The translations under genes were made by a program, and so were the position numbers. The notes beneath the pieces were generated by a model. That model was not told the origin of the DNA and did not search any database. It saw only the letters and a program-made list of their open reading frames with translations. From Microcoleus asticus IPMA8 (GTDB taxonomy: Bacteria; Cyanobacteriota; Cyanobacteriia; Cyanobacteriales; Microcoleaceae), in the NCBI RefSeq assembly GCF_013179805.1, contig NZ_SRRZ01000172.1:1-12503 (forward strand): DNA of 12,503 nt, written 5' to 3'. Positions 1 to 12,503 of this stretch are shown here, piece after piece (position 1 is the stretch's first letter; each line of letters opens with the position of its first letter).

Positions 1-90
1 TACGAAGACGAAGCGATCGCGTTTGAGCCAGTCGTCGAGTACATCAAAGATGCCTCTTTCGGTCTGGGCGCGTCCGACTGCGATTGTCAT
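1..90 (-). CDS. psbD: Photosystem II D2 protein, N-terminal 30 codons (gene continues off the left edge)
   Basis: The reverse complement of 1-90 reads ATG ACA ATC GCA GTC GGA CGC... = [30 protein letters not shown]. This closely matches the conserved D2 N-terminus ([29 protein letters not shown]). A GGAG lies about 9 nt upstream of the ATG on the minus strand. It is too short to appear in the ORF track. Confidence 0.9.
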
Positions 91-285
91 TACGCAAATC
101 TCCAAATGGATATAATTACAGCGGATCTTTCTCTAGTCATTAGTCTCCAACCGTTGCCTCTGCTTACCAGAAAACAAGTTGGATTATGAACAGAGTTTAC
201 TTTTCTTTACCGTATTGACGATTATAGAGGTAATTCTTTACAAGAGCAAGTTTTTCTTAAAAAAATTTCGGCTCTTGACTTGTCC

Positions 286-330
286 GAAGTCCCCGAAGTC
301 CCCGAAGCCCTCGAAGTCCCTGAAGTCCTT
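286..330. repeat. Tandem 9-bp repeat, 5 copies (GAAGTCCCC, GAAGTCCCC, GAAGCCCTC, GAAGTCCCT, GAAGTCCTT)
   Basis: Read directly from the sequence: five head-to-tail nonamers, with a partial unit at 281-285. They lie in the psbD upstream region and account for the artefactual SPK-rich ORF 179..454. Confidence 0.85.
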
Positions 331-506
331 GCCCTGCATTTGGGAACTTCTACTATATAGGAGTCTCTGCGCTTTGCGTCAGAAGCCCCGTGGCTTGGTA
401 GATGTATCGCCCTCAACCTCTGATTTTTCTAAGAAACTGGGTTTCCGTGGGTAAGTCCTATATATATACTGAGGATAGAGCTCCAAACTTAGGTTTTTAA
501 GACTAT

Positions 507-779
507 ATGTTCAGCATTGACATCATTGTGAAAAATACGCCCGTCTCGCTGTCGGTGCAGCGGAAGTTGGAGGAGGACGCTGAGACTGTTTACCAGCAGG
601 TACTGGCGGCGATTCGCAACTCCCAACCGCAAGTTTTGGAACTAACTTGCGAGAAAAATCCTGAGAAAAAGGTGGCTGTCGTCAGCAGCGAGATTTCTGG
701 GGTGGTGGTTTCTCAGAAATCGGGGGCGTCATCTACAGGCAGATCCCCGGGTTTTGTCTCGCTGTCGGCAGCAGAATGA
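507..779 (+). CDS. Small soluble hypothetical protein (90 aa), resembling small uncharacterized proteins I recall from cyanobacteria (from memory, unverified)
   Basis: ATG-initiated ORF. Its stop TGA (777-779) overlaps the ATG (776-778) of the downstream ABC ATPase gene as ATGA. Composition looks coding and there are no hydrophobic segments. I did not recognise a catalytic motif. Confidence 0.6.
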   Translation: MFSIDIIVKNTPVSLSVQRKLEEDAETVYQQVLAAIRNSQPQVLELTCEKNPEKKVAVVSSEISGVVVSQKSGASSTGRSPGFVSLSAAE

Positions 780-1474
780 GGGCTGGGGGTGTTGGTGCCG
801 AGATGAGCCAGTCAGCCGTTGCTGTGCGGGATTTGGGTTTTTGCTGGCCGTCGGGCGATCGAGTGTTGCAAGGTTGCTCTCTGGATGTACCCAAGGGCGA
901 GTTTTGGATGCTTTTGGGTACTAACGGCAGCGGCAAGTCTACGCTGTTGAGGCTGATGGCTGGGCTGCTGCACCCCCAGTCGGGGGAAATTGACTTGGGT
1001 GGGCGAGTGGGTTTTGTGTTCCAAAACCCGGATCACCAACTGGTGATGCCGACTGTGGGTGCGGATGTGGCTTTTGGTTTGGTGGAGGAAAAGCTTTCTA
1101 ACGTTCAGGTGCGGGAGAGGGTGGCGGAGGCTTTGGAGGCTGTGAATTTGCTGGATTTGCAGCGGCGGCCGATTTATGCTTTGAGTGGGGGCCAGAAGCA
1201 GCGAATTGCTCTTGCTGGGGCGATCGCCCGTCACTGCGAAATTCTCCTGTTGGACGAACCGACGGCTTTGTTAGATCCTGATTCTCAGTTGGATTTGGTG
1301 GCGGCGGTGCAGCGGTTGGTGAAAAATCGCGGGATTACGGCTTTGTGGGTGACTCACCGTTTGGATGAGTTGAATTATTGTGATGGGGCTTTTTTGTTGG
1401 AAAAGGGCCAAGTGGTCGATCGGGGAGATCCGGCGCGTTTGAAGCAGCGGTTGATGCAAAGTCAAGATGTTTAG
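776..1474 (+). CDS. ABC transporter ATP-binding protein, EcfA/CbiO-like (energy-coupling-factor/cobalt type)
   Basis: Walker A GTNGSGKST, Q-loop region FQNPDHQL, ABC signature LSGGQKQR, Walker B ILLLDEPT and H-loop VTHR are all present. An alternative start is ATG 803 (MSQSAVAVRDL...). Confidence 0.9.
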   Translation: MRAGGVGAEMSQSAVAVRDLGFCWPSGDRVLQGCSLDVPKGEFWMLLGTNGSGKSTLLRLMAGLLHPQSGEIDLGGRVGFVFQNPDHQLVMPTVGADVAFGLVEEKLSNVQVRERVAEALEAVNLLDLQRRPIYALSGGQKQRIALAGAIARHCEILLLDEPTALLDPDSQLDLVAAVQRLVKNRGITALWVTHRLDELNYCDGAFLLEKGQVVDRGDPARLKQRLMQSQDV

Positions 1475-1536
1475 CCCTCAAGCAATTTAAGAATTAAGTC
1501 ACTCGGCGATTGAAATCGCTGCATAGAGTGAAACGA

Positions 1537-1554
1537 AGTCTGCCTCCGCAGACT
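1537..1554. terminator. Hairpin AGTCTGC-ctcc-GCAGACT in a convergent intergenic region (weak terminator candidate)
   Basis: Perfect 7-bp stem with a 4-nt loop, between the 3' ends of the ABC ATPase (+) and the DUF4058 gene (-). There is no clear U-tract on either strand, so confidence is low. Confidence 0.25.
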
Positions 1555-1599
1555 AAGAAATAAATAGGGTATTTAACCAGAATTTGGCTCCAGCCCAAA

Positions 1600-2391
1600 T
1601 TAATCTCGCAATCCTCGATCGCGCAACCAAGCATCTGCCCAAATTGTATCGGCTTCTGATAGCGCTGGTATGACTTCCCAGTTGCGATAATCTATCTTCA
1701 GGTCGTAACTTGCTATGTCGTAAATTTGAGTGAATAATTCCTGCAAGTTTATGACAGGTTCAGTATCGCCAGATCGCAGCGGTAAAGGAAAGGCAGGAAT
1801 CGGGTTTTGCAGGTTAAAAGCATACAAATCCGCTCGGGGACGGCGATTTCCCCGACATACTAAAACGCTATAGTGACTATCAATATTGTTTTCAAGAATT
1901 GGCATTTTTCGACCGCGCCGCAATAAATCTATTTCTATTAAATGAGTGCGACTACTTAAAACTTCTTCTCGCTTTTCCTCATACATTTGTCGCCCTTTGC
2001 CTGTTCGCTTATTCGTAGGCGAGAGAATTTCAATTACTGTTATCAATTCTTTTTCCCCCCTTTCTCTAATTTCTAAATAAGCTTCTCGAAGCGTGTAAGG
2101 TATGGGAAGAGTTACTGTGAATGGTTGTGTAAGCGGTGCTGCCACCGCTACGTTTGATGCTGTTGTTACTGTTGCAGTTTGTGGCTGCATTACAGTTACG
2201 TCGGGAATGCCAATGACTGATAAATCGTCGTCAGCCGTTTCATAGATTCTCACTTCCAGCGACACTAAATACTTAGGACGCAGTTGGGGAGATAAAAACC
2301 TGAAAATTTCACTAATCAGCAAGTTATGCATCCCAGGCCAGAGTTCGGGATGCTCTAAATACGGGTCCATACCGGGAAAGGGAGATGGCAT
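1600..2391 (-). CDS. DUF4058-family protein (Uma2/PD-(D/E)xK restriction-endonuclease-like fold)
   Basis: The N-terminus MPSPFPGMDPYLEHPELWPGMHN is what I recall as typical of DUF4058. IPDV ... EILSPTNK fits a PD...ExK nuclease core. I prefer ATG 2391 over the track's TTG 2412 because AGGAG lies 8-9 nt upstream of it (caAGGAGtcaaatcaATG). Confidence 0.85.
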   Translation of the reverse strand: MPSPFPGMDPYLEHPELWPGMHNLLISEIFRFLSPQLRPKYLVSLEVRIYETADDDLSVIGIPDVTVMQPQTATVTTASNVAVAAPLTQPFTVTLPIPYTLREAYLEIRERGEKELITVIEILSPTNKRTGKGRQMYEEKREEVLSSRTHLIEIDLLRRGRKMPILENNIDSHYSVLVCRGNRRPRADLYAFNLQNPIPAFPLPLRSGDTEPVINLQELFTQIYDIASYDLKIDYRNWEVIPALSEADTIWADAWLRDRGLRD

Positions 2392-2543
2392 TGATTTGAC
2401 TCCTTGACTCAAGTCTATTTATAGTTTAGCAATACTTTTCTGGCGCGAATGGCTTGCCAACAGATTTTAGGGCATAGCTTCGCTTGTGGCAGATGATGAC
2501 TGAAGGCTCGATCGACCTTTTGCAATAATAGGTTCGATCGCAC

Positions 2544-2613
2544 ATCTTGCACTTATTGCCATGTTCCGTCGGGGGTTTAAACTCCTGCCGGAATATGGCA
2601 ACAAATGCAAGAT
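2544..2613. repeat. 70-bp imperfect palindrome (25-bp arms, 22/25 complementary), MITE/REP-like element
   Basis: Left arm 2544-2568 is ATCTTGCACTTATTGCCATGTTCCG. The reverse complement of right arm 2589-2613 is ATCTTGCATTTGTTGCCATATTCCG. The element is flanked by the direct repeat TTCGATCGCA at 2533-2542 and 2619-2628. Confidence 0.5.
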
Positions 2614-2628
2614 ATTAATTCGATCGCA

Positions 2629-2871
2629 TTAACTTTCGATCGACAATTGCATCGGAATTGGAACGCTGTTTTCATCTAAGACAGACAGCGCATTTACGAA
2701 AACAATTGTATGCGGGACTGCGGGCATTAAGCGGCGCAGTGCTTTGAGGTAAGATTCGGCATCGGGGCGGCGGCTGAAACGAGCGACTGTTAACCGCTGA
2801 CAGTTGGGGAGGTGGCGAATTATGCACCAAGGTTGAAGTCGATCGCGATATGTCGGTTGTTTTGGTATCAT
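2629..2871 (-). CDS. Small hypothetical protein (80 aa)
   Basis: ATG start with GGAAGGA about 7 nt upstream on the minus strand. The segment WCIIRHLPNCQRLTVARFSRRPDAESYLKALRRLMP resembles small proteins I recall from cyanobacteria. Function is unknown. Confidence 0.55.
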   Translation of the reverse strand: MIPKQPTYRDRLQPWCIIRHLPNCQRLTVARFSRRPDAESYLKALRRLMPAVPHTIVFVNALSVLDENSVPIPMQLSIES

Positions 2872-2969
2872 AGGAAAATCCTTCCCACTTTTGTGGGTGG
2901 TGAATGAAAGGCGATCGCTCTAGATTTCTCAGGTCCGAGGGCGATCGCTATTAATTGTATATTCATTAA

Positions 2970-2987
2970 ATTACGAGTAGTCGTAAT
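2970..2987. promoter_or_regulatory. Candidate operator palindrome ATTACGA-gtag-TCGTAAT just upstream of the HTH gene
   Basis: Perfect 7-bp inverted repeat. It ends 13 nt before ATG 3001 and starts a few nt downstream of a -10-like TATATT (2958-2963). This position fits autoregulation by the adjacent XRE-type repressor. Confidence 0.3.
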
Positions 2988-3000
2988 TGTCAAGGGCGGA

Positions 3001-3213
3001 ATGGGACGAATTAGACTGCGAGTTCGAGAACTTGCTCAAGAGAAGGGTTGGACTCTTAGGGAAGTCTCCAACAGAACGGGTATTCCATACACTACGATCG
3101 CCACCTATGCCAGTTCTCCAGGTATGGCAACTGTTGACTACACGGCTTTGGACAAGATGGCTCGTGCGTTCGATATTGCGATCGAAGATTTAGTCGAGAT
3201 TTTGGAACAGTAA
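3001..3213 (+). CDS. XRE/Cro-CI family helix-turn-helix transcriptional regulator (70 aa)
   Basis: LRELAQEKGWTLREVSNRTGIPYTTIATY is a canonical HTH_3-type helix-turn-helix pattern. AAGGGCGGA lies directly upstream of the ATG. The overlapping ORF 2987..3193 is in another frame and is rejected. Confidence 0.85.
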   Translation: MGRIRLRVRELAQEKGWTLREVSNRTGIPYTTIATYASSPGMATVDYTALDKMARAFDIAIEDLVEILEQ

Positions 3214-3273
3214 ACTGATTGTGCGTAAAGGACGGCTCTTGCGTTAGCACTTTTTACACGATACTTGCGTATA

Positions 3274-3302
3274 TTGGAATTTTCCGGCTGTAGACTATAG
3301 TC
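3274..3302 (+). promoter_or_regulatory. Candidate sigma70-type promoter (TTGGAA, 16 nt spacer, TATAGT) with a 10-bp palindrome GACTATAGTC over the -10
   Basis: TTGGAA is at 3274-3279 and TATAGT at 3296-3301, 16 nt apart. The perfect palindrome GACTATAGTC (3293-3302) overlaps the -10 element. All of this lies upstream of ORF 3334. Confidence 0.3.
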
Positions 3303-3333
3303 AGGAGTTGTTCAGTCTGCCGGAGTTATATTA

Positions 3334-3825
3334 ATGCCGATCGATCGCCTGTCTGACATGGAAGGGAACTTGGAAGATCTGAAAGAGCAATTAGTGGGCA
3401 AGGTAAAGGCTCTAAATTTAGCACCGCAAGAAGAAAAGATCCGAATTAAACAGCAAATCCGAGAGCTACGCAAGGAGATTCGGGAGCAGGAAGAGGAGGA
3501 TTGGCAGGTTCTCGCTCAGCAAACGAAAACGGTGGAAATTCCCGAACAGGAAGCTGAGATTATTGTTGCCGAGATTGTCGAAGAAGTTGGGCAAATTGAA
3601 GTGCAGGGACAGTATCCCGATGAGGTAATTCAGATTTTGCAGGAGATTCGGGACAGGCTAAACCAACCGGGACCGACAGCAGCCGCGAAACTTAAAGGCG
3701 TGATCTCAACTAATTTCCCGTTCCTGGGAATTTCCTACGAGGCTGAAGTGGATACAGAGGAGTTATTCAACCAGCATTTCCCAACGTTCAACAGGTTAAT
3801 TAAGGCATTAGCAAAAAAGCCCTAG
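3334..3825 (+). CDS. 163-aa coiled-coil/acidic protein with an amphipathic C-terminal segment; probably the N-terminal module of the downstream NB-ARC-TPR protein
   Basis: ATG with GGAG 9 nt upstream. Heptad-like charged region LEDLKEQLVGKVKAL...IRIKQQIRELRKEIREQEEE, then an acidic stretch, then AAKLKGVISTNFPFLGISYEAEVDTEELF. The ORF ends ...GCA AAA AAG CCC TAG, overlapping the open upstream part of the NB-ARC frame. Confidence 0.75.
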   Translation: MPIDRLSDMEGNLEDLKEQLVGKVKALNLAPQEEKIRIKQQIRELRKEIREQEEEDWQVLAQQTKTVEIPEQEAEIIVAEIVEEVGQIEVQGQYPDEVIQILQEIRDRLNQPGPTAAAKLKGVISTNFPFLGISYEAEVDTEELFNQHFPTFNRLIKALAKKP

Positions 3826-3856
3826 ACCTGGAGCGAAAAACACCGAATCCAGGTTT
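3801..3856 (+). other. Candidate -1 recoding cassette: SD-like UAAGG (3801-3805), slippery A_AAA_AAG (3813-3819), hairpin 3824-3832/3848-3856
   Basis: In the zero frame the heptamer reads GC-A AAA AAG, which is the correct X_XXY_YYZ phase. A -1 shift makes GCC (3819-3821) the next codon, and this is in the frame of ORF 3930..6101. ACCTGGA (3826-3832) pairs perfectly with TCCAGGT (3848-3854). The stem is extended by a G-U and an A-U pair, and the loop is 15 nt. Confidence 0.5.
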
Positions 3857-3929
3857 CACAAGTTTTTACCAACTATACGATATTCCCTCCGAACTCGGTT
3901 CCAAAAACTTTGTCGGACGGGATGAGGAA

Positions 3930-6101
3930 ATGCAGCAGTTGCACGGATTGTTGCAGGATGGAAGCCGCGTTGCCATTGCCGCTGCGTCGGGAATGGGCGG
4001 CATCGGCAAGACAGAATTGGTATGGCAGTATGCAACTTTTCACCGCGAACAGAACACCTATTCAGCGGGGATTTGGTGGCTGTTTGTCCGGGACAACGAT
4101 TTAGCGCCCCAGGTGTTGCAGAAAGCGCTGCGAATGGGAATTCAGCCGCCGGATACTCTCGACAATCTGGAGGAACGGTTGCAGTTTTGCTACGAAGAGT
4201 GGGCAAAACAAACCTCTGGCAATGCTCTGCTGGTATTGGATGATGTCAACGATTACCGCAGGGTGGAGCGGTTGCTGCCTAGAAATCCCCGCTTTAAAGT
4301 GTTGCTGACAGCGCGACAAATTGTGCCCCCGCCTGTGGGGTGTTTGCCGTTAAAAGTGTTGAAACCAGAGGCGGCGCTAAACTTGCTGCGGCTGACGGCA
4401 GGGGATTTGCCGGGAAACCGACTGGGTTTAAATATTGATGCCCAGCTTGAAGATGCTCAAGCACTTTGTCAGTGGTTGGATTATTTGCCTTTGGGCATCG
4501 AACTGGTGGGGCGCTATTTGCGACGCAAGCGGGCGCTGTCCTTGGCAACAGTGCTGCAACGGTTGCAGAGTCAGCGATTGGAGGCGCGGGCATTGCAGGA
4601 GGCGGAAGCTGGGATGACGGCTAGGCGCGGAGTGGCGGCAGCTTTTGAGTTGAGTTGGGCGGAGTTGAAACCTCCCGCGCGGACGCTGGGGTGTCTGCTG
4701 AGCGTGTTTGCTCTGGCTCCGATTCCTTGGGAGTTGGTAGCCGAGTGTTTGCCGGATTGGGATGAGGAGGAGATGGAGGATTGTCGGGATTACGAACTGC
4801 TGGAACAGAGTTTGCTGTCGCTGGTGGAGGATGAAACCTCTGATCCAGCTCAATCTGGGCTGGTGCAGCCACGCTATCAACTTCATGCTTTGATTCGGGA
4901 GTTTTTTGCGGCCAAATTGCAGGGACACGCCGATGCTGAGAATTTGCGGAGAAGTTTTGCGGCGGTGCTGACAGCGGTGGCGAAGACGATTCCGCAGACT
5001 GTGACGCTGGAGGTGCAGGAACGGGTGAAGGAGGCGTTGCCTCATTTGGATGTGGTGGCGGAGCAATGGTCACATCTGCTGGAAGATAGTGATGCTGTGT
5101 GGTCTTTCACGGTTTTGGGGCTGATTGCTAAGGGACAGAGTTTGTGGGCAGAGGCAGAAAAGTGGTTCAAAGCTTGCCTCCAGATGACAGAGAAACGTTG
5201 CGGAGCCGAACATTCCCTTACGGCAAAGAGTTTGAACAATCTGGCATTGCTGTACGATGCAATGGGACGCTACCCAGAGGCGGAACCCTTGTATGTGCGA
5301 TCGCTCTCTATTTACGAGCAGCAGCTCGGAGCCGACCATCCCGATACAGCTCTGAGTTTGAACAATCTGGCAGCCCTGTACTATGCAATGGGTCGCTACG
5401 CGGAAGCGGAACCTTTGTATGTGCGATCGTTCTCGATTTACGAGCAGCAGCTAGGAGGCGATCATCCCAATACGGCTACGACTTTGAGCAATCAGGCAGA
5501 GCTATACCGTGCGATGGGACGCTACCCAGAAGCGGAACCCTTGTATGTACGCTCGCTCGCCATCAGGGAGCAGCAGCTCGGAGCGGAACATCCCGATACA
5601 GCTCTGAGTTTGAACAATCAGGCATTGCTGTACCATGCAATGGGTCGCTACCCGGAGGCGGAACCCTTGTATGTGCGAGCGATCGCGATCAGAGAGCAAA
5701 AGCTCGGAGCAGAAGATCCCTATACGGCAACGAGTTTGAACAATCTGGCACAACTATACAGTGCAATGGGACGTTACCAGGAGGCGGAACCCTTGTCTAT
5801 TCGATCGCTCTCTATCCATGAGCAACAGCTCGGAGCCGACCATCTCCATACGGCAAGTAGTTTGAACAATCTGGCAGCGCTGTATTGTGCAATGGGACGC
5901 TACCCGGAAGCAGAACCCCTGTATGTGCGATCATTAGAAATTTTGTTTAACCGATTGGGGAAGAATCATCCCAACACCCAAAGAGTTTGTAGGAATTTCA
6001 TTAATTTTCTCCAGAAGGCGATATCAGCGGGTCAAGAGTCGCAACTGTCGCAGCATCCAACAACGCAAGCAATGCTTCAGCAACTTCGGGAGACGGAGTA
6101 G
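3930..6101 (+). CDS. NB-ARC (STAND/AP-ATPase) NTPase with a C-terminal TPR array (NLR-like protein); the true N-terminus probably lies upstream of 3930
   Basis: Walker A GMGGIGKT (3990-4013), Walker B LLVLDDV (4227-4247), KVLLTAR (RNBS-B-like), LPLGIELVG (GLPL-like) and LHALIREFF (MHD-like, from 4881). These are followed by 7 TPR_10/12-type 42-aa repeats (about 5103-5984). Confidence 0.92.
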   Translation: MQQLHGLLQDGSRVAIAAASGMGGIGKTELVWQYATFHREQNTYSAGIWWLFVRDNDLAPQVLQKALRMGIQPPDTLDNLEERLQFCYEEWAKQTSGNALLVLDDVNDYRRVERLLPRNPRFKVLLTARQIVPPPVGCLPLKVLKPEAALNLLRLTAGDLPGNRLGLNIDAQLEDAQALCQWLDYLPLGIELVGRYLRRKRALSLATVLQRLQSQRLEARALQEAEAGMTARRGVAAAFELSWAELKPPARTLGCLLSVFALAPIPWELVAECLPDWDEEEMEDCRDYELLEQSLLSLVEDETSDPAQSGLVQPRYQLHALIREFFAAKLQGHADAENLRRSFAAVLTAVAKTIPQTVTLEVQERVKEALPHLDVVAEQWSHLLEDSDAVWSFTVLGLIAKGQSLWAEAEKWFKACLQMTEKRCGAEHSLTAKSLNNLALLYDAMGRYPEAEPLYVRSLSIYEQQLGADHPDTALSLNNLAALYYAMGRYAEAEPLYVRSFSIYEQQLGGDHPNTATTLSNQAELYRAMGRYPEAEPLYVRSLAIREQQLGAEHPDTALSLNNQALLYHAMGRYPEAEPLYVRAIAIREQKLGAEDPYTATSLNNLAQLYSAMGRYQEAEPLSIRSLSIHEQQLGADHLHTASSLNNLAALYCAMGRYPEAEPLYVRSLEILFNRLGKNHPNTQRVCRNFINFLQKAISAGQESQLSQHPTTQAMLQQLRETE
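5229..5984 (+). repeat. Six in-frame tandem 126-bp repeats (42-aa TPR units), highly similar at the DNA level
   Basis: Units start at 5229, 5355, 5481, 5607, 5733 and 5859, exactly 126 bp apart. The consensus is SLNNLAxLYxAMGRYPEAEPLYVRSLSIxEQQLGADHPDTAx. A degenerate unit precedes the array at 5103-5228. Confidence 0.9.
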
Positions 6102-6140
6102 CTGTTGCTGCTAGAGCGATTATTGCCAACTTCCTACAAA

Positions 6141-6240
6141 ACTTACGCATGGGGTCCAGAAACCGGGTTTTTTCCATAATACTTCGTTACAGCTTGCAGA
6201 TAAGGCAAAAAACCCGGTTTCTTTGACGAAGCGCATAAGT
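6141..6240. repeat. 100-bp imperfect palindromic element with a perfect 16-bp inner inverted repeat
   Basis: AGAAACCGGGTTTTTT (6158-6173) is the exact reverse complement of AAAAAACCCGGTTTCT (6207-6222), with a 33-nt spacer. Outer arms ACTTACGC (6141-6148) and GCATAAGT (6233-6240) match 7/8. Confidence 0.6.
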
Positions 6241-6282
6241 CTCGATCGCATTAAAAAGAGGTAAGTTGTGATTTTTCGTTGG

Positions 6283-6345
6283 GTGGGGGCGGGTTTTTGA
6301 GATTGTCTATCTGTGTCATAAAGGGTTGGAAAAACCCGCCCCCAC
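6283..6345. repeat. Second long inverted repeat, perfect 16-bp arms with a 31-nt spacer
   Basis: GTGGGGGCGGGTTTTT (6283-6298) is the exact reverse complement of AAAAACCCGCCCCCAC (6330-6345). It shares the CGGGTTTTT...AAAAACCCG core and the overall architecture with the element at 6158-6222. Confidence 0.6.
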
Positions 6346-6392
6346 AGGTCGATCGAGGATGTGCGATATCTCAGATTTTACGGTTAATTCCC

Positions 6393-7901
6393 CTACTTCA
6401 TCTCATATCCAAACAAATTCGGATCGACTTCACCCAAATTCAAATCAGCCAAACCATACTCAGCCCAACGCCGATCGACCATCGCGGCCACATCCGGATC
6501 GGACTCCAAAACTTCACCCCATTCGTGATCGGTTTCCGGCGGCATCTTCGTAGTAGCATCAATCCCCATTCTGCCTCCCAAACCAATCTTTTCACTGGCA
6601 AAATCTAACGTATCAAAAGGCGTATTCGGCAGAATAAATACATCCCGAACCGGATCGACTTTAGAACTAATTGCCCAAACTACTTGACGCGGGTCGCGAA
6701 TGTTGATACTTTTATCGACAACAATCACAAACTTAGTGTAAGTAAACTGCGGTAATGCACTCCAAAATGCTAAAGCAGCCCTGCGCGCTTGACCGGGATA
6801 TGCTTTATCAATCGAGATAATTGCGGCTTTATAACTCAGGGCTTCCATCGGTAAGAAGAAATCGACAATTTCCGATACTTGCTGCCGCAAAATAGGGGTA
6901 TAAATACGGTTAAGCGCGATCGCCATCATTGCTTCTTCTTTCGGCGGCCGCCCGCTAAATGTCGTCAGATAAATCGGGTCTTTGCGGTGCGTCATGCAGT
7001 GGAACCGCACCAACGGCGAATCTTCCACGCCGCCGTAATAACCCATGTGATCGCCGAAGGGCCCGTCGGGCAGAACTTCCCCCGGCGTAATCGTTCCTTC
7101 TAACACAATTTCCGAGTCCGCCGGTACTTCCAAATCTACGGTTTTGCACTTCGCCAATTGCACGCCGGAACCGCCGTAAAGTCCCGCAAATAACCATTCC
7201 GATAAATCTACAGGAATTGGGGTTGCTGCGGCGAGAATAATCAGGGGATCGACTCCCAGGGCGATCGCAATTTCCAACTTTTTACCAGCCTGCGCCGCTT
7301 TCCGTAAGTGTCGCGCCCCGCCCCGCACCGATAACCAGTGTACAGTCATCGTGTTTTTTGACTGCAACTGCAACCGATAAACCCCCACATTCGGAGTGCC
7401 CGTTTCGCAATCTTTGGTAATTACCAAACCCAGGGTGATAATTTTGCCCGCATCTCCCGAATAAGGGCGAATCATCGGGATTTTGTTCAAATCCACCCCT
7501 TCTCCCTCAAATACCACTTGCTGACAAGCTGGGAAAAAGTTGCGGCCGGGTTTGGCTTTCACTACGTCAAACAGCACTTTGCCGAATTCTATCGCTTGGG
7601 AAATCTTTTTCGGCGGTTTTGGCTGTTGCAGCATTCCCAGTTTTTTGCCGAGCTCTTCTAGTTCGATCGGCTTTTCCATGTTCATCGCCCAGCAAACGCG
7701 CTCTTCCGTACCCAACAGGTTAATGGCGACGGGGAAATCTGCCCCTTTGACGTTTTCAAACAGCAATCCAGGGCCGCCTTTTTGCAGCATTTGGTTGGAA
7801 ATTTCGGCAATTTCGAGGTCGGAATCGACTAAGGCGCTAATCCGGCGCAGTTGTCCCCGTTCTTCGAGCAGTTTTAGGAATCCCCGCAAGTCTCTTGCCA
7901 T
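6393..7901 (-). CDS. ubiD: UbiD-family (de)carboxylase, 4-hydroxy-3-polyprenylbenzoate decarboxylase-like (plastoquinone pathway in cyanobacteria)
   Basis: The 502-aa length and the N-terminus MARDLRGFLKLLEERGQLRRISALVDSDLEIAEI are typical of UbiD. Conserved blocks GVYRLQ, HWL..RGGARH and GPFGDHMGYY are present. Confidence 0.92.
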   Translation of the reverse strand: MARDLRGFLKLLEERGQLRRISALVDSDLEIAEISNQMLQKGGPGLLFENVKGADFPVAINLLGTEERVCWAMNMEKPIELEELGKKLGMLQQPKPPKKISQAIEFGKVLFDVVKAKPGRNFFPACQQVVFEGEGVDLNKIPMIRPYSGDAGKIITLGLVITKDCETGTPNVGVYRLQLQSKNTMTVHWLSVRGGARHLRKAAQAGKKLEIAIALGVDPLIILAAATPIPVDLSEWLFAGLYGGSGVQLAKCKTVDLEVPADSEIVLEGTITPGEVLPDGPFGDHMGYYGGVEDSPLVRFHCMTHRKDPIYLTTFSGRPPKEEAMMAIALNRIYTPILRQQVSEIVDFFLPMEALSYKAAIISIDKAYPGQARRAALAFWSALPQFTYTKFVIVVDKSINIRDPRQVVWAISSKVDPVRDVFILPNTPFDTLDFASEKIGLGGRMGIDATTKMPPETDHEWGEVLESDPDVAAMVDRRWAEYGLADLNLGEVDPNLFGYEMK

Positions 7902-8077
7902 TGTTGTTAAAGAAATGTTAAGTGTCCCTACTATTATGCGGCGATCGGGGGATGGAGTGCGGGGTGGGAGCGATCGGGCGATCGCTAAATAAATTTCTAT
8001 TGTTATCGTTAGTCTATGAGTTGGTATTTCTCAGATTCATCAAAAATTGACTTTAGCTAATTTTTATTAGCAATACT

Positions 8078-8107
8078 CTTAACCATAATTTAAACAAAGC
8101 TTATTCT
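8078..8107 (+). promoter_or_regulatory. Pho box set 1: three 8-bp direct repeats at 11-bp spacing (CTTAACCA taa TTTAAACA aag CTTATTCT)
   Basis: Fits the cyanobacterial SphR/PhoB box pattern of PyTTAAPyPy(T/A) repeats separated by 3-bp A/T-rich linkers. The first unit is exact and units 2 and 3 each have one mismatch. It lies upstream of pstS. Confidence 0.55.
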
Positions 8108-8125
8108 AATATTATTTAATCTACT

Positions 8126-8155
8126 ATTAACCAAAATTTAAAACAAGCTTATTCT
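8126..8155 (+). promoter_or_regulatory. Pho box set 2: ATTAACCA aaa TTTAAAAC aag CTTATTCT
   Basis: Near-identical copy of set 1, 48 bp downstream, with the same 8+3 periodicity. It ends about 80 bp upstream of the pstS ATG. Confidence 0.55.
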
Positions 8156-8235
8156 ATTAAATCTCTTTCCTTGGGGGTTTCAGTCTATCCTATGGAGGAG
8201 ATTTGCAAAGTCGGCTATTAAGGGAGAGGAGGAAT

Positions 8236-9264
8236 ATGAATTTTTTCACAGGACGTTGGCGACGTAGTTTTATAGTGATACTAGCAGCAGCAGCATTTTC
8301 GCTGACTTTGATTAGTTCCGCTGTAGCTGCTGTAACCCTAAATGGTTCGGGAGCAACTTTCCCTAAACCTCTTTACGATCGCTACTTCTCTCAGATGAGA
8401 AGTGCAAATCAAATTACTGTAAACTACGAAGGAACCGGCAGCGGTGCTGGCATCAAAGCATTAATTACAGGCACTGTTGATTTCGCAGGCAGCGACGCGC
8501 TGATGACTGCTGCACAAATAGCCGAAGTAAAGCGCGGCGTCATGGCGATTCCGACTGCTGGCGGTGCTGTTGCAGTTGTTTATAACTTGCCCGGAGTGAC
8601 CAATCTGAGGCTAAATAAGGATGCCATGAACGGCATCTTTGAAGGCAAGATTACTCGCTGGAATGATGCGAAAATAGCCGGAATTTCTGGACAAGCTAAA
8701 AACTTGCCAAATACTCCCATTCGAGTAGCTGTACGCGCAGATAGCAGCGGTACAACCTTTATTTTTGCTAACCACTTGCAGGCAACTGGTAGCAGCATCA
8801 AAGCTGCCGCGCAACCGAAGTGGCCCGGAAGCCCTGTCAGCGGTCAAGGAAACCCCGGCGTAGCTGCTTTGGTGAAGAATACAGCGGGTGCGATCGGCTA
8901 CGTTCAAGATACTTATGCTCGGCAAAACAATCTCCAAACAGCATTTATTCAAAATAAAGCTGGCCGATTTGTAGATCCTAGCTTGGCTGAAGCAGAGAAA
9001 GCTTTAGCAGGGGAAACATTCCCCGCAGATTTCCGCTTAGTAGAAGGCAATCCTAACGACGGTTATCCGATTGTTGGTTTGACTTGGCTGTTAATCTACA
9101 AACAGTATCCTGCTGCGAAAGCAGAGGCTATTAAAAAGATGGTTAATTGGGTGATGACTACAGGTCAAGGTATCAACAAACAGCTAGAGTATACTACAAT
9201 TCCTTCAGCTACAGCTCAAAAGGTGGTTCAAACAGTTAATCAGACTGTGGTTGCCAGAGGTTAA
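8236..9264 (+). CDS. pstS: Phosphate ABC transporter substrate-binding protein PstS
   Basis: I prefer ATG 8236, preceded by AGGGAGAGGAGG, over the track's TTG 8203. An N-terminal signal peptide ends in AVA-AV. The mature protein has LNGSGATFP, GTGSGAGI and DSSGTT motifs typical of PstS, and pstCAB follow. Confidence 0.92.
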   Translation: MNFFTGRWRRSFIVILAAAAFSLTLISSAVAAVTLNGSGATFPKPLYDRYFSQMRSANQITVNYEGTGSGAGIKALITGTVDFAGSDALMTAAQIAEVKRGVMAIPTAGGAVAVVYNLPGVTNLRLNKDAMNGIFEGKITRWNDAKIAGISGQAKNLPNTPIRVAVRADSSGTTFIFANHLQATGSSIKAAAQPKWPGSPVSGQGNPGVAALVKNTAGAIGYVQDTYARQNNLQTAFIQNKAGRFVDPSLAEAEKALAGETFPADFRLVEGNPNDGYPIVGLTWLLIYKQYPAAKAEAIKKMVNWVMTTGQGINKQLEYTTIPSATAQKVVQTVNQTVVARG

Positions 9265-9360
9265 TTTGGGCGATCGCACAGGGTTAGGAGTTTACGAGTT
9301 AAATGTAGGACTCAAAACTCAGAAATTATCAAGTTAATGTGCGCTAGATTTACTGTGTAA

Positions 9361-9377
9361 GGTGCGCTGTGCGCACC
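9361..9377 (+). other. GC-rich hairpin GGTGCGC-tgt-GCGCACC (pstS-pstC intergenic region)
   Basis: Perfect 7-bp stem with a 3-nt loop and no following U-tract. A near-identical copy lies 27 bp downstream. Confidence 0.6.
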
Positions 9378-9387
9378 CTACAAACCA

Positions 9388-9404
9388 GGTGCGCAGCGCG
9401 CACC
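9388..9404 (+). other. GC-rich hairpin GGTGCGC-agc-GCGCACC (second copy)
   Basis: Perfect 7-bp stem with a 3-nt loop. Both copies are followed by C, giving GCGCACCC. Confidence 0.6.
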
Positions 9405-9462
9405 CAGCCCATTAAATTACTCGTCTTGCAAGCAAATATTTCACTTTTTACGCGATTCCGGT

Positions 9463-10464
9463 ATGACCAATATTTCAAAAAAAACGAAAAAACAGACTCG
9501 GCAACCGGCAGAAATAAACACAGAAGTAGATTTAACAGATACTACTGGTGAAGGTTTATGGATGGAGTCAGGATTTACACTATTTGTATGGGGTTTTGCC
9601 TTAGCGACAGCGGGTACGCTGTTTTGGATGAGTGCGGTAATTTTTAAAGATGCTTGGCCAGCTATTAGCGAATTTGGACTCTCATTCTTGTGGAATCCCA
9701 AGTGGGATATCGGCGAGTTGCAGTTTGGGGCTTTGCCGTTTATTTACGGTACTGTAATTAGTTCTGCGATCGGCATAATCATCGCACTTCCTTTAGGGCT
9801 GTCAGTAGCTATAGTTACTAGCGAGAACTTCTTACCCGTTTGGGTGCGATCGCCCTTGGGATTCATGGTTGAATTAATCTCGGCTATTCCCAGCGTGATA
9901 GTTGGCCTGTGGGGAATCTTTGTTTTGATTCCCTTTTTGTTGCCATTGCAGCAGTCATTGTTCGATAATTTCAGTTGGTTTCCCCTGTTCAGCAGCGAAC
10001 CTTTAGGCCCCGGAATGCTGCCGGCTGGAATACTGTTATCAATTATGATTTTGCCAACAGTAGCTGCCATCAGCCGCGATGTATTGATGTCAGTTCCCGT
10101 AGATTTGCGCAGTGCTTCCATGTCCCTCGGTGCCACCCGCTGGGAAACGATATTCAAGCTGTTATTGCCAGCAGCTAGTTCGGGGATTATCGGGGCTACA
10201 ATCTTGGCTTTGGGACGCGCTTTAGGCGAAACAATGGCCGTCACAATGGTGATTGGCAACTCGATTCAAATTAACCAATCCCTGCTAGCTCCCAGCTACT
10301 CAATTCCTGCTGTTTTGGCGAGTCAATTTCGGGAAGCTCTCGAACCGCTGCACATCGGCGCTTTGATGTATTTAGCCCTAATTTTATTTGCGATCACTTT
10401 GTTGGTAAATGCGATCGCAGTATTGCTAGTTCAGCTAATCGGCGTCAAGGGATCTAAAAATTAA
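9463..10464 (+). CDS. pstC: Phosphate ABC transporter permease PstC
   Basis: Multi-pass membrane protein with an EAA-like loop (ASMSLGATRWETIFKLLLPAA) and ALGRALGETMAV. It sits between pstS and pstA. The start is uncertain; an internal ATG at M34 has a GAAGG upstream. Confidence 0.9.
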   Translation: MTNISKKTKKQTRQPAEINTEVDLTDTTGEGLWMESGFTLFVWGFALATAGTLFWMSAVIFKDAWPAISEFGLSFLWNPKWDIGELQFGALPFIYGTVISSAIGIIIALPLGLSVAIVTSENFLPVWVRSPLGFMVELISAIPSVIVGLWGIFVLIPFLLPLQQSLFDNFSWFPLFSSEPLGPGMLPAGILLSIMILPTVAAISRDVLMSVPVDLRSASMSLGATRWETIFKLLLPAASSGIIGATILALGRALGETMAVTMVIGNSIQINQSLLAPSYSIPAVLASQFREALEPLHIGALMYLALILFAITLLVNAIAVLLVQLIGVKGSKN

Positions 10465-10576
10465 CACGCTCGAAAGTAATTGGTAACAAGCCATTTTATG
10501 TATTCTTTCCCCGGCTCAGGACGGAGAAAGAGAAAAGTGTAACATCCTGAGAACAAACTTGCGGATAAATCCGCAG

Positions 10577-10611
10577 AATCAATCTAAAATCTAAAATCTA
10601 AAATCTAAAAT
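10577..10611. repeat. Tandem heptamer repeat AATCTAA, 4 full copies (10581-10608) plus partial flanking units, STRR-like
   Basis: Read directly from the sequence. The array ends 4-6 nt before the pstA ATG (10615). It is preceded by hairpins CTCAGGA...TCCTGAG (10515-10551) and TGCGGA-taaa-TCCGCA (10560-10575). Confidence 0.85.
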
Positions 10612-10614
10612 TGC

Positions 10615-11595
10615 ATGACTCAAGTAAAAAAATCAAACAGTATTCTGGATGCAGAAATCAACAATCCCCTGTCGCTAAGCCGAAAATTTTTCAGCCGGGG
10701 GATGACAGTTATCGCTTTCGCTCTGACAGCTCTCGCCCTGCTCCCTTTGTTTGCTATCTTATACAAAATCCTGGGAGAAGGACTCACACATTTGAGCTGG
10801 GAAGTGCTAGTGTCTCTACCAGCACCCGTTGGAGTTGAAGACCAGCCCAACGGCTTTGCCAATGCGATTCTTGGGACAGCTTTAATGGTAGGAATTGCTA
10901 CGTTATTTAGTGTTCCAATCGGCGTAATGACGGGAATATTTCTGTCTGAGTTTGGTAGAGACAACAAAGCGCTGGCTAATAGCATCCGCTTTATCACCGT
11001 CATTCTCAGCAGCGTTCCCTCGATCGTAGTTGGCGTCTTTTCCTATGCCCTAATTGTCATTACCACCAAAGCATTTTCATCCTTAGCAGGCGGTTTTGCC
11101 CTTGGCATCATCATGCTTCCAGTTGTTGCTCTGACAACAGAACAAGCATTAAAATTAGTGCCTACTTCTTACCGCCTCGCTTCTGCTGCTTTGGGAGGCG
11201 GACGCTTTCAAACGATGTTTCGCACGATCGTACCCTCAGCACTTCCAACTATTACCACAGGTATTTTACTAGCTGCTTCCCGGGCCGCCGGCGAAACCGC
11301 ACCGCTGATTGTAACAGCGTTGTCGAGTCAATTTTGGCCTCCTTTAGTTGATAAGTTGGGCGAGATAATGCAGTCCCCCATAGGTGAAGAAACTATCTCA
11401 AAACTCAAAGAAATTCCCGAGACATTGCTGACTCCTACTCCTTCTATGTCAGTATTAATATATAGCTACGCCAGCTCTCCCTACAAAGAGCAGAACGAAT
11501 TGGCGTGGACTGCTGCCTCTGTGCTTTTGGGCATGGTTTTGATTGCTAGCGTCGCATCCCGTACAGTAACTCGGAAACGCTTTCAAAAGCGATAA
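10615..11595 (+). CDS. pstA: Phosphate ABC transporter permease PstA
   Basis: Multi-pass membrane protein with an EAA-like loop (ASAALGGGRFQTMFRTIVPSALP) and SRAAGETAPL. It sits between pstC and pstB. It seems to carry an extra hydrophilic segment (PPLVDKLGEIMQSPIGEETISKLKEIPETLL) relative to the PstA proteins I recall. Confidence 0.9.
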   Translation: MTQVKKSNSILDAEINNPLSLSRKFFSRGMTVIAFALTALALLPLFAILYKILGEGLTHLSWEVLVSLPAPVGVEDQPNGFANAILGTALMVGIATLFSVPIGVMTGIFLSEFGRDNKALANSIRFITVILSSVPSIVVGVFSYALIVITTKAFSSLAGGFALGIIMLPVVALTTEQALKLVPTSYRLASAALGGGRFQTMFRTIVPSALPTITTGILLAASRAAGETAPLIVTALSSQFWPPLVDKLGEIMQSPIGEETISKLKEIPETLLTPTPSMSVLIYSYASSPYKEQNELAWTAASVLLGMVLIASVASRTVTRKRFQKR

Positions 11596-11651
11596 ATCAA
11601 TAACTAAAGTCCATCTATCAGTCCAATATTAACAATATAACCAAGCAAATA

Positions 11652-12503
11652 ATGAAACCTAAAGCTAACTTGAAGGCCGAAAACTCTACAGAGAAATTTC
11701 TAGAAAATGCCACGCCGGAAATTGACCCCAATGCAATGCCAGCACTGCGGGTGCAGGACTTGAGTTTTTATTACGGAACTTACAAAGTCTTAGAAAATTT
11801 ATCGATGAATATCCCTCACCCGCAAATTACCGCGATTATTGGCCCTTCAGGTTGCGGCAAATCTACCTTTCTCAAAGCTCTCAACCGGATTGGTGAATTG
11901 GAGGGAAAGGTTAAAATTAAAGGAAGAGTAGAGTTTTTTGGACAGGATATTTACAGCCCGAAAGTAAACATTAATAGTTTGCGTCGCCAAATTGGGATGG
12001 TGTTTCAAAGACCGAATCCTTTTCCGCTGAGCATCTACGATAATATTGCTTACGGGGTGAGGATTTTTGGTCGCAAAAGCAAAGCAGAATTAGATGAAAT
12101 TGTGGAATCTGCACTTAAAAGTGCGGCGCTTTGGAATGAAGTCAAAGACGATTTGAAGAAATCGGCTCAGGGGATTTCGGGGGGACAGCAGCAGCGACTT
12201 TGTATTGCTCGCGCTTTGGCTGTGAAGCCGAAAATTTTGCTAATGGATGAACCTTGTTCTGCTCTAGATCCGATTTCAACGATGAAGATTGAGGAGTTAT
12301 TTCAGACTCTGCGGCAGCAGTTGACTGTTGTGATTGTGACCCACAATATGCAGCAGGCGGCTCGGGTTTCTGATTACACGGCATTTTTTAATACTGATGA
12401 AAGTCGCATCGGCCGCCTAGTTGAATTTGGGCCGACAAGTAAGATTTTTACTTCTGCGGGCAATTCGAGTACGAGAGATTACATTCAAGGCCGTTTCGGT
12501 TAA
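11652..12503 (+). CDS. pstB: Phosphate ABC transporter ATP-binding protein PstB
   Basis: Walker A GPSGCGKST, LSGGQQQRLCIARAL, Walker B ILLMDEPCSALD, H-loop VTHN, and the C-terminus YIQGRFG typical of PstB. The stop TAA is at 12501-12503. An alternative start is ATG 11736 (MPALRVQDL...). Confidence 0.93.
   Translation: MKPKANLKAENSTEKFLENATPEIDPNAMPALRVQDLSFYYGTYKVLENLSMNIPHPQITAIIGPSGCGKSTFLKALNRIGELEGKVKIKGRVEFFGQDIYSPKVNINSLRRQIGMVFQRPNPFPLSIYDNIAYGVRIFGRKSKAELDEIVESALKSAALWNEVKDDLKKSAQGISGGQQQRLCIARALAVKPKILLMDEPCSALDPISTMKIEELFQTLRQQLTVVIVTHNMQQAARVSDYTAFFNTDESRIGRLVEFGPTSKIFTSAGNSSTRDYIQGRFG

Follow-up and report, generated by a model that had tools for sequence, protein, structure and literature searches.

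A stretch of 12,503 nucleotides from the cyanobacterium Microcoleus asticus IPMA8 (NCBI RefSeq assembly GCF_013179805.1, contig NZ_SRRZ01000172.1, positions 1 to 12,503 of the forward strand; hereafter the window) carries a gene for a nucleotide-binding, leucine-rich-repeat receptor (NLR)-like protein, a signal transduction ATPase with numerous domains (STAND) built from an NB-ARC domain and TPR repeats, and 5' of it an open reading frame (ORF), ORF1, for a small all-alpha module. The locus is probably an NLR-like STAND switch whose N-terminal adaptor, encoded by this separate upstream ORF, is joined to it by programmed −1 frameshifting. Judged from relatives, it also appears rather likely that a whole family of cyanobacterial adaptor ORFs reads, by a −1 frameshift of the dnaX type, into the protein downstream, be it of the STAND, NLR-like or VMAP type. 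The parts named in a preliminary description of this DNA, a helix-turn-helix (HTH) protein of the XRE type, a 163-residue module and a complete NB-ARC domain with TPR repeats, are all present according to ORF calls and Pfam. That description placed the module N-terminal to the NB-ARC domain; an unrecognised module does occupy this position, yet it forms an ORF of its own, in another frame, which ends at a TAG. The only link between the module and the NLR-like protein is a conserved candidate site for −1 frameshifting, a key feature that the preliminary description does not mention. The nearest relatives of the window's sequences are all from Microcoleus or other Oscillatoriales, and the features at the junction are the following.

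3334-3825, + strand: ORF1, the 163-residue all-alpha, adaptor-like module; zero-frame product, ending at TAG 3823-3825.
3813-3819, + strand: slippery heptamer A_AAA_AAG, in the X_XXY_YYZ register of ORF1.
3819-6101, + strand: −1 frame ORF encoding NB-ARC and TPR (open from 3804).
3819-3929, + strand: predicted trans-frame linker ALDLERKTPNPGFTSFYQLYDIPSELGSKNFVGRDEE, −1 frame, without ATG, GTG or TTG.
3824-3856, + strand: hairpin AGACCUGGA / UCCAGGUUU, 9 bp with a 15-nt loop, a candidate frameshift stimulator.
3939-4589, + strand: NB-ARC (AP-ATPase) NTPase domain (Pfam NB-ARC, 1.5e-12).
5201-5932, + strand: TPR sensor array, a 126-nt (42-residue) unit repeated 5.8 times.

ORF1 is read in frame 1 and the NB-ARC protein in frame 0, which makes them separate ORFs with the NB-ARC protein in the −1 frame relative to ORF1. 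The end of ORF1 reads GCA_AAA_AAG_CCC_TAG, with the heptamer one codon before the stop, and this heptamer is the sole AAAAAAG on the + strand of the window (the two strands together have two, where 6.2 are expected). From 3804 onward the −1 frame is open, and its first ATG, GTG or TTG is the ATG at 3930, so that 37 start-less codons follow the slip site. A −1 slip at the heptamer would yield a 922-residue module-NB-ARC-TPR fusion with the junction LAKK|ALDLERK. A tryptic peptide of the linker, TPNPGFTSFYQLYDIPSELGSK, is encoded 5' of ATG 3930, within the start-less stretch, and so is the pre-P-loop motif FVGRDEE (3909-3929), which is read in the −1 frame. Since FVGR(D/E)xEL precedes the P-loop and the AAA_16 match starts at position 11, the NB-ARC domain extends upstream of ATG 3930. 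Non-canonical starts in the linker, ATT at 3807 and CTG at 3828, were considered and rejected, as they are not conserved among species. An Rfam scan of the junction returned no RNA family.

A scan of species-representative genomes gave 15 loci from Microcoleus-type genomes, 12 of which have one and the same architecture at the junction: heptamer, one codon and TAG, with the −1 frame opening 19 nt 5' of the stop and its first start codon lying 107 nt 3' of it. The heptamer is invariant in 12 other Microcoleus species, in which ORF1 is only 57-86% identical, and the module differs to this extent (57-86% identity) between species whose flanking genes are 94-99% identical. Within the 104-nt start-less stretch, 11 of the 20 variable sites fall on the third codon position of the −1 frame, as in the NB-ARC domain after the ATG; in the invariant 19-residue block LYDIPSELGSKNFVGRDEE (3873-3929), all seven variable nucleotides among 13 species (7/7) are of this kind. 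The nucleotide identity of the linker (0.90-0.95) equals that of the NB-ARC N-terminus and is unlike that of intergenic spacer. With dN/dS ratios (nonsynonymous to synonymous substitution rates) of 0.40 for the module and 0.31 for NB-ARC, compared with 0.03-0.10 for flanking genes, both ORFs are under purifying selection. These comparisons show that the start-less −1 ORF is under coding constraint and that the slip site is conserved at synonymous positions.

Two of the surveyed loci, which are designated here by L numbers (proteins by P numbers), have altered alleles. L013, from Microcoleus sp. SVA1_B3, carries A7 instead of A6 at the slip site, which places the frames in register and reads LAKKVVD...; its NB-ARC domain is deleted, leaving an in-frame module-TPR protein (5023-7053, 629 residues from the module start), and a separate 164-residue ORF (4494-4988) lies just 5' of this gene. 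The A7 allele means that the fusion junction exists in frame in nature, in a gene that has lost NB-ARC. At L022 (3990-4327), the −1 ORF past the linker (…FVGRDEEMQ) runs for 118 codons and resembles the TRADD-N region of P0122, not NB-ARC; it looks like a recombinant or decayed allele.

The slip site extends well beyond Microcoleus. The DNA of diverged members was taken from metagenomes and assemblies, and the metagenome scan was made by alignment of closer members. More than 170 homologues of the 163-residue protein were found, nearly all of exactly 163 residues, with 69-93% identity and with K161 and K162 invariant. A profile search with the module gave 251 clusters; among the 107 tabulated, most are stand-alone proteins of about 160-175 residues, 25 carry the module at the C-terminus and 8 carry it in frame at the N-terminus. 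An exact KK C-terminus is present in a third of 150 listed representatives; a background count of ORFs with this ending was discarded, because the family is over-represented in the loci used for it. At the DNA level, an in-frame slip motif stands 0-2 codons before the ORF1 stop in 24 of 26 non-redundant intact lineages, across module identities of 26-86%. All 20 tabulated lineages have an NNA codon followed by AAA, and the next codon is AAG in 19 and AAA in one. The NNA codon itself varies (GCA, CCA, GGA, GTA, CTA); elsewhere in these ORFs, lysine is encoded by AAA in 59% and by AAG in 41% of cases, and third positions are A in 30%.

The two alternative frames behave differently after the slip site. 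In the metagenome loci, the +1 frame meets a stop after no more than 55 codons and mostly much sooner, and the −1 frame stays open for hundreds of codons and leads, with no start codon near its beginning, into partner proteins. These partners are NB-ARC-TPR proteins of several kinds, a NACHT protein (L032), an nSTAND1/NPHP3_N-type NTPase (L041), an nSTAND1-WD40 protein (L058), nSTAND4 (L039), VMAP-C (L033), GUN4 (L034) and transmembrane/TPR proteins (L029, L056). The earliest start available to the −1 ORF in L041-43 is a methionine inside Walker A (GDPGMGKS), so this ORF would give no working NTPase unless it is entered from ORF1. In L053, an ORF for a TIR-module protein ends in gcA_AAA_AAG TAA followed by a hairpin, and the −1 frame leads into a 732-residue STAND-TPR protein; the short product would be an effector-adaptor and the long one an effector-adaptor-sensor. 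Three lineages have an A8-A9 run instead of A_AAA_AAG. Runs of this kind, placed before the stop, are seen at L030 (about 536-545), L038, L039 and L058 (about 3993-4001), and the −1 frame still leads to nSTAND4 or nSTAND1-WD40. By analogy with Thermus dnaX, these loci may use transcriptional slippage.

Candidate stimulators accompany the heptamer in many members. In sites of the dnaX type, these are a 3' structure at a distance of 5-9 nt, an SD-like (Shine-Dalgarno) element 10-14 nt on the 5' side, or both. The hairpin of the window starts 4-6 nt after it, with a folding energy of −13.8 kcal/mol (z = −3.9), and unrelated sequences fold as hairpins at the same position in L016, L019, L025, L026, L029, L034, L036, L053, L057 and L058. 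Strong hairpins (z below −1.8) lie 3-5 nt 3' of the heptamer in 8 of 17 lineages; the downstream linkers are unrelated between lineages, yet hairpins recur at this place. Several lineages, mostly those without a strong hairpin, have a Shine-Dalgarno (SD)-like GGAGG or AGGAG 9-12 nt upstream. In E. coli, the slipperiness of A_AAA_AAG is determined by the tRNA-Lys repertoire.

The preliminary description recognised no nuclease, protease, TIR or similar motif in the 163-residue module, and the module matches no Pfam, NCBIfam or PADLOC family, and PDB profile and sequence searches with it gave nothing significant. An AlphaFold2 model (predicted local distance difference test score 82, predicted TM-score 0.67) is all-alpha with 8 helices: residues 5-66 form a long hairpin of helices, and six shorter helices come after it. 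For this model Foldseek returned only generic helical bundles from PDB and BFVD (best E 0.6, TM-score at most 0.41). The module has a net charge of −12 and a maximal Kyte-Doolittle 19-residue mean of 0.84, and lacks a transmembrane segment. The family core that is most conserved, AAAKLK...PPF...SYExELDTE...FPTF, is helical; it is this core, not a membrane segment, that had been described as a hydrophobic or amphipathic segment. A membrane-perturbing role like that of the coiled-coil (CC) domain of plant CC-NLRs, one of the two roles suggested earlier, thus finds no backing in hydropathy or fold.

The other suggested role, that of an adaptor, agrees with the distribution of the module. It is found C-terminally on TIR (P0126/L053), HTH-TRADD-N (P0122/L015), vWA (P0233, by eye), SNF2 (P0125), NACHT (P0202) and STAS-LRR-Roc-COR (ROCO; P0218) proteins, and N-terminally, in frame, on nSTAND1 (P0188), STAND-TPR (P0221), TPR and PBP proteins. 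The junction of the in-frame fusion P0188, FKKAL, is like the KK|AL predicted for the window. On these architectures, the module can be considered an unclassified putative adaptor that matches the pattern of the effector-associated domains (EADs), being small, non-enzymatic and terminal on NTPases and effectors. EADs are small non-enzymatic adaptors shared by core NTPases and effectors, with predicted homotypic contacts (PMC7159879, PMC8195603). The likeness covers the all-alpha fold, the terminal position on an NTPase and on TIR, TRADD-N and vWA proteins, the frequent occurrence in filamentous cyanobacteria and the partners VMAP-C, GUN4, nSTAND1/4, NACHT and AP-ATPase-TPR; TRADD-N genes next to AP-ATPase-TPR genes have already been noted (Kaur et al. 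2021, PMC8195603). Unlike the classical EADs, which occur as two separately encoded copies in adjacent genes, the module is present in one copy within the 12.5-kb window and would appear on two products through frameshifting, a process that is mentioned neither in Kaur et al. 2020 (PMC7159879) nor in Kaur et al. 2021 (PMC8195603). The window module matches none of the named Pfam EAD families (EAD1-11). Two assignments were considered and rejected: EAD9 (PF19962), which gave sub-threshold matches in 6 of 36 members (best E 0.0024) and in 0 of 10 further members, and EACC1, which is built around a conserved transmembrane helix that the module does not have.

The downstream protein makes the locus an NLR-like STAND (NB-ARC-TPR) of the AP-ATPase/NB-ARC clade. 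The NB-ARC match exceeds the curated threshold (PF00931, 47.8 bits with a cutoff of 23.5) and spans model positions 8-228 of 248. The motifs on which the domain had earlier been called complete were found where they had been placed: Walker A GMGGIGKT (3990-4013) and Walker B LLVLDDV (4227-4247), read from the sequence, an RNBS-B-like KVLLTAR (4296-4316), a GLPL-like LPLGIEL (4485-4505) and LHALIREF (4881-4904), the last assigned as MHD-like by resemblance only. The expected TPR sensor array follows (TPR_12 2e-97, TPR_10 1e-77 in Pfam). Partial similarity to the NCBIfam families AfsR (1e-27) and FxSxx_TPR lies below their cutoffs, and profile and sequence searches of PDB with NB-ARC gave nothing significant. 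The −1 ORF measures 765-932 residues across L001-L014, in steps of roughly 42 residues, and the TPR copy number varies by species, which agrees with recombination inside the array that adds or removes entire 126-nt TPR units.

Upstream of ORF1 lie a regulator and further genes, which appear to belong, together with ORF1 and the NLR-like gene, to a variable island.

1600-2412, − strand: DUF4058 gene (1.2e-108).
2629-2871, − strand: 80-residue ORF, divergent to the XRE gene, with no family match in Pfam, NCBIfam or PADLOC.
2969-2988, no strand assigned: perfect palindrome AATTACGA-GTAG-TCGTAATT, 12 nt upstream of the XRE start.
3001-3213, + strand: XRE/Cro-C1-type HTH protein of 70 residues (Pfam HTH_26 1.4e-8, HTH_3 6e-6).
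3274-3301, + strand: promoter-like TTGGAA-16 nt-TATAGT, 5' of the module ORF.

The palindrome (8+8, perfect) has no second match in the window. It is identical in five loci, and in the four of these that were compared with the window HTH (L003, L004, L006 and L011) the first HTH protein is 97-100% identical to it. Where the HTH allele is another one, a different palindrome occupies this place. The palindromes upstream of the first HTH copy are, by allele, TTACGA-N4-TCGTAA, GATACG-TT-CGTATC and AGCTATG-AG-CATAGCT. From species to species, the palindrome varies in step with the HTH allele, and the XRE gene is probably autoregulated, with the palindrome as a candidate operator, in line with the palindrome that had been proposed at its own promoter. 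One to three HTH copies occur in tandem, each of 70 residues, about 24 nt apart and 68-100% identical to that of the window (L001 2953-3628, L002 4776-5451, L007 3055-3726, L009 5008-5683, L012 4542-5450).

A second palindrome, at the module promoter, had been taken as a sign that the XRE protein also controls the module; the palindrome does not hold up as described, which leaves such control as a possibility. The sequence in question is only a 10-bp GACTATAGTC that overlaps the −10-like TATAGT and is specific to the window, other loci having the non-palindromic GACTAGAGTC. No copy of the TTACGA-N4-TCGTAA operator is present in 3214-3333, even with up to two mismatches, CGTAA-like half-sites being seen by eye only, and the XRE gene is absent from L016 and L019, related loci in other genomic surroundings. 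The promoter block ATATTGGAATTTTCCG...CCGGAGTTA is kept in 12 of 13 loci, irrespective of their HTH allele, and a GGAG stands 10 nt before the module ATG at 3334. The upstream XRE HTH gene or genes may be an autoregulated, lineage-specific regulator of the island.

Of the 15 Microcoleus-type loci, 13 have the island between the same flanks, ABC ATPase/DUF4058 and UbiD/pstSCAB, and the dN of the island is about 10 times that of the flanks. Its content varies in the number of HTH copies (1-3), DUF4058 copies (1-2) and TPR units and by gene insertions. The preliminary description had held that conserved synteny without a defence neighbourhood would speak against a conflict function, and this was found in part only, in the shared flanks and the housekeeping neighbours. 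The 80-residue ORF travels with the island in most Microcoleus-type loci (86-99% identity, dN/dS 0.34); whether it is part of the system is uncertain. The DUF4058 gene is 66-96% identical between species and duplicated in L009 and L014, and both it and the 80-residue ORF appear to behave like island genes, not flank genes. In L018, an inserted gene for a Pkinase-FGE-sulfatase (FGS-type) protein (2851-4554) separates the HTH genes from the module, and a Fic/MazE pair lies 3' of the NLR-like gene (8278-8891); L057 has a PhdYeFM/ParE pair in that place.

The window also holds features away from the island. A conserved hypothetical gene of 90 residues (507-779; NCBIfam PRK13683, 1.4e-34) shares a 4-nt ATGA overlap with the start of an ABC-type ATPase gene (776-1474), and both genes are 91-99% identical across the Microcoleus-type loci. 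Intergenic tandem repeats are found at 284-328 (CCGAAGTCC x5) and at 10581-10611 (AATCTAA x4.4), the latter just 5' of a pstA-like gene. As befits cyanobacterial DNA, the window has 12 copies of the HIP1 octamer GCGATCGC, where 0.27 would be expected.

In the proposed mechanism, ribosomes translating ORF1 would reach A_AAA_AAG, where most would terminate one codon later and release the free 163-residue module, and a fraction would slip back one base and produce the 922-residue module-NB-ARC-TPR protein. Two isoforms, one short and one long, would thereby receive an identical module from a single coding sequence and be made in a fixed ratio, and since both isoforms carry the identical adaptor, a homotypic interface would stay matched despite the fast divergence of the module. 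Activation through oligomerisation is established for the STAND superfamily. Ligand binding by the TPR array and NTP-dependent oligomerisation would cluster the fused modules, by analogy with EAD and Death-like adaptors, and the clustered modules would engage, by homotypic contacts, the pool of free module. Effectors that bear the module, like the TIR-module and TRADD-N-module proteins of relatives, may be engaged by them as well. A conflict response would be expected to follow, for example defence, dormancy or cell death, and a defence role is plausible. The PADLOC check that the preliminary description had suggested recognised no known defence system at the locus (PADLOC-DB v2, including Avs1-5 and bNACHT); its sole match was to the generic model 'TPR repeats containing protein' (2.9e-7), with none for the module, the HTH protein, the 80-residue ORF or the DUF4058 gene.

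Several observations weigh against a frameshift-joined conflict switch, besides this PADLOC result. As to the joining, ATG 3930 is kept in all 13 Microcoleus loci with a GAGG 2 nt before it, which makes separate initiation of a somewhat shorter NB-ARC-TPR protein possible; L054 (SNF2-module) and L027 have no slip motif; the −1 ORF of L055 may encode an independent protein with a twin-arginine translocation (Tat) signal; and the heptamer is kept in L015 and L044/45/49 although the downstream ORF has decayed. As to the stimulators, the Microcoleus hairpin shows no covariation in RNAalifold, the sequences being too similar, and it is broken in L001 (one pair) and L014 (two pairs); a clear hairpin is missing in about half of the lineages; and the SD-like element of the window is weak (TAAGGC). 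As to the function, the free module has no recognisable effector activity, its likeness to a named EAD family is sub-threshold only, and the immediate neighbours are housekeeping genes at a site that is fixed in 13 of 15 Microcoleus-type loci.

With frameshifting still taking place, the free module may instead be a negative regulator or decoy, which in excess would cap the fused module and set an activation threshold. This is a possible but tentative alternative. The zero-frame product is expected in excess at the usual frameshift efficiency, the short form of the window is without an effector domain, and the retention of the heptamer in loci with a decayed downstream ORF implies that the short form is valuable by itself. 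Mammalian CARD-only or Pyrin-only proteins, as well as IS3 OrfA in relation to OrfAB, would be analogues. The short forms of relatives, however, carry TIR or TRADD-N domains, which fit the delivery of an effector better than pure inhibition.

It is unlikely that the locus encodes a housekeeping STAND protein for signalling or regulation of the AfsR or MalT kind, controlled by the XRE protein and belonging to the Microcoleus core genome. Its fixed position, the empty PADLOC result and the sub-cutoff similarity to AfsR and FxSxx_TPR are what such a protein would have, whereas this one has neither a DNA-binding nor an output domain. In addition, the roughly tenfold faster dN of the island, its changing TPR and HTH copy numbers and its gene insertions do not suit a housekeeping gene, and the partners of the module (TIR, TRADD-N, VMAP-C, nSTANDs, NACHT) belong to the conflict-system vocabulary of Kaur et al.

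The joining could also take place during transcription, if RNA polymerase added one A in the A-run. One added A does restore the frame, as the A7 of L013 demonstrates, and the A8-A9 runs of L030, L038, L039 and L058 are in the length range known for slippage. An A6 run is, however, shorter than those known for appreciable transcriptional slippage. Most lineages have exactly A6 followed by G in a strict X_XXY_YYZ register relative to ORF1, together with an adjacent stop, a 3' hairpin or a 5' SD-like element, which are matters for ribosomes, not for RNA polymerase. That the fusion is made by transcriptional slippage, of the kind described for Thermus dnaX (PMC3711429), is improbable.

Still less probable is the arrangement in which gene callers annotate the locus, two ordinary genes without recoding, with the NB-ARC-TPR protein starting at ATG 3930 after an untranslated spacer. 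The conservation of this ATG with GAGG just upstream agrees with it, and the Pfam NB-ARC match begins just after its methionine. The supposed spacer, however, has no stop codon in the NB-ARC frame in any of the species, varies at third positions of that frame (7/7) and encodes the FVGRDEE motif of the domain. The GAGG is only 2 nt from the ATG. Elsewhere in the family, the position of this methionine is held by leucine, and the first start lies up to 62 codons 3', even inside Walker A. Nor would independent genes require that NNA_AAA_AAG be kept at synonymous positions.

A decaying or mis-assembled gene, in which a homopolymer error or a recent frameshift has split a fused gene, might be suggested by the break in a homopolymer, the in-frame fused relatives and the downstream decay at L015, L022 and L044/45/49, but it is effectively refuted by the comparative data, as the same split recurs in more than 40 independent assemblies and metagenomes and more than 100 protein clusters of exactly 163 residues, persists across 26-86% module divergence and separates two ORFs that are both under purifying selection.

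The predicted −1 frameshift has well-known counterparts. E. coli dnaX, which yields tau and gamma, has the identical A_AAA_AAG, a 3' hairpin a few nucleotides away and two products that share their N-terminus and are made in a fixed proportion, and the SD-like element found about 9-12 nt upstream in some lineages has the spacing that stimulates −1 shifts in dnaX. The module-family variants with longer A-runs are reminiscent of Thermus dnaX. Unlike in dnaX, the frameshift product here would be the long form and the zero frame stops 0-1 codons past the slip site, in which the locus resembles IS3 OrfA/OrfAB and the phage tail chaperones G/GT. Here the frameshift is a prediction from sequence, and STAND or NLR-like conflict genes would be a class new for the mechanism.

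On the side of the protein, Avs and bacterial NACHT systems likewise place a STAND NTPase between an N-terminal module and a sensor made of C-terminal repeats. The present locus differs from them in having no PADLOC match, an adaptor instead of an effector enzyme, an NB-ARC-clade NTPase with TPR_12-type repeats and a split gene that is apparently recoded. The plant CC-NLR CC domain is also helical and N-terminal to NB-ARC; the module, in contrast, is without structural similarity to it (E 0.6, TM-score at most 0.41), acidic and soluble, and occurs on many non-NLR proteins. In BASS, the NLR-associated amyloid signalling motifs of filamentous bacteria (Dyrka et al., bioRxiv 10.1101/2020.01.06.895854), and in fungal NWD2/HET-S, an upstream ORF ends in the element that starts the adjacent NLR, and signalling is homotypic and templated. 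A duplicated short amyloid motif serves there, whereas here the shared element would be a folded helical domain of 160 residues, encoded once and shared by recoding. Beside its TIR-module/STAND pair, L053 holds two more pairs of an upstream ORF and an NLR (507-3806 and 7253-8969), whose upstream ORFs end in ...GGTAYIGEIHIQGQPD and ...GGTVNIGNPPGQP; these are BASS-like by eye only, and one of the two ORFs encodes a TIR protein.

The kinds of parts involved are thus known, and their combination is new. Within a limited search coverage, no report of frameshifting in STAND or NLR genes was found in the Atkins 2016 recoding review, in the GeneTack survey with its supplements, in a 2026 systematic STAND study or by general searches of the literature.

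Most known programmed frameshifts belong to insertion sequence (IS) elements and phages, and very few are known to be conserved in bacterial cellular genes (dnaX, prfB, copA, csoS2, cdd). A family-wide −1 site in NLR-like STAND genes would, if true, constitute a new and large class of programmed frameshift and the first programmed recoding in prokaryotic NLR-like immunity or cell-death genes. Present annotations give such loci as a 'hypothetical protein' and, after it, a 'TPR/NB-ARC protein' that is truncated at its N-terminus, and owing to this split annotation, surveys of STAND architectures would miss their N-terminal modules. For the cyanobacteria that carry them, frameshifting would provide a new way to keep adaptor pairs matched during fast diversification, and the stoichiometry of the adaptor-only and adaptor-sensor isoforms would form a built-in layer of control, comparable to that of CARD-only and ASC-type proteins in animal inflammasomes.

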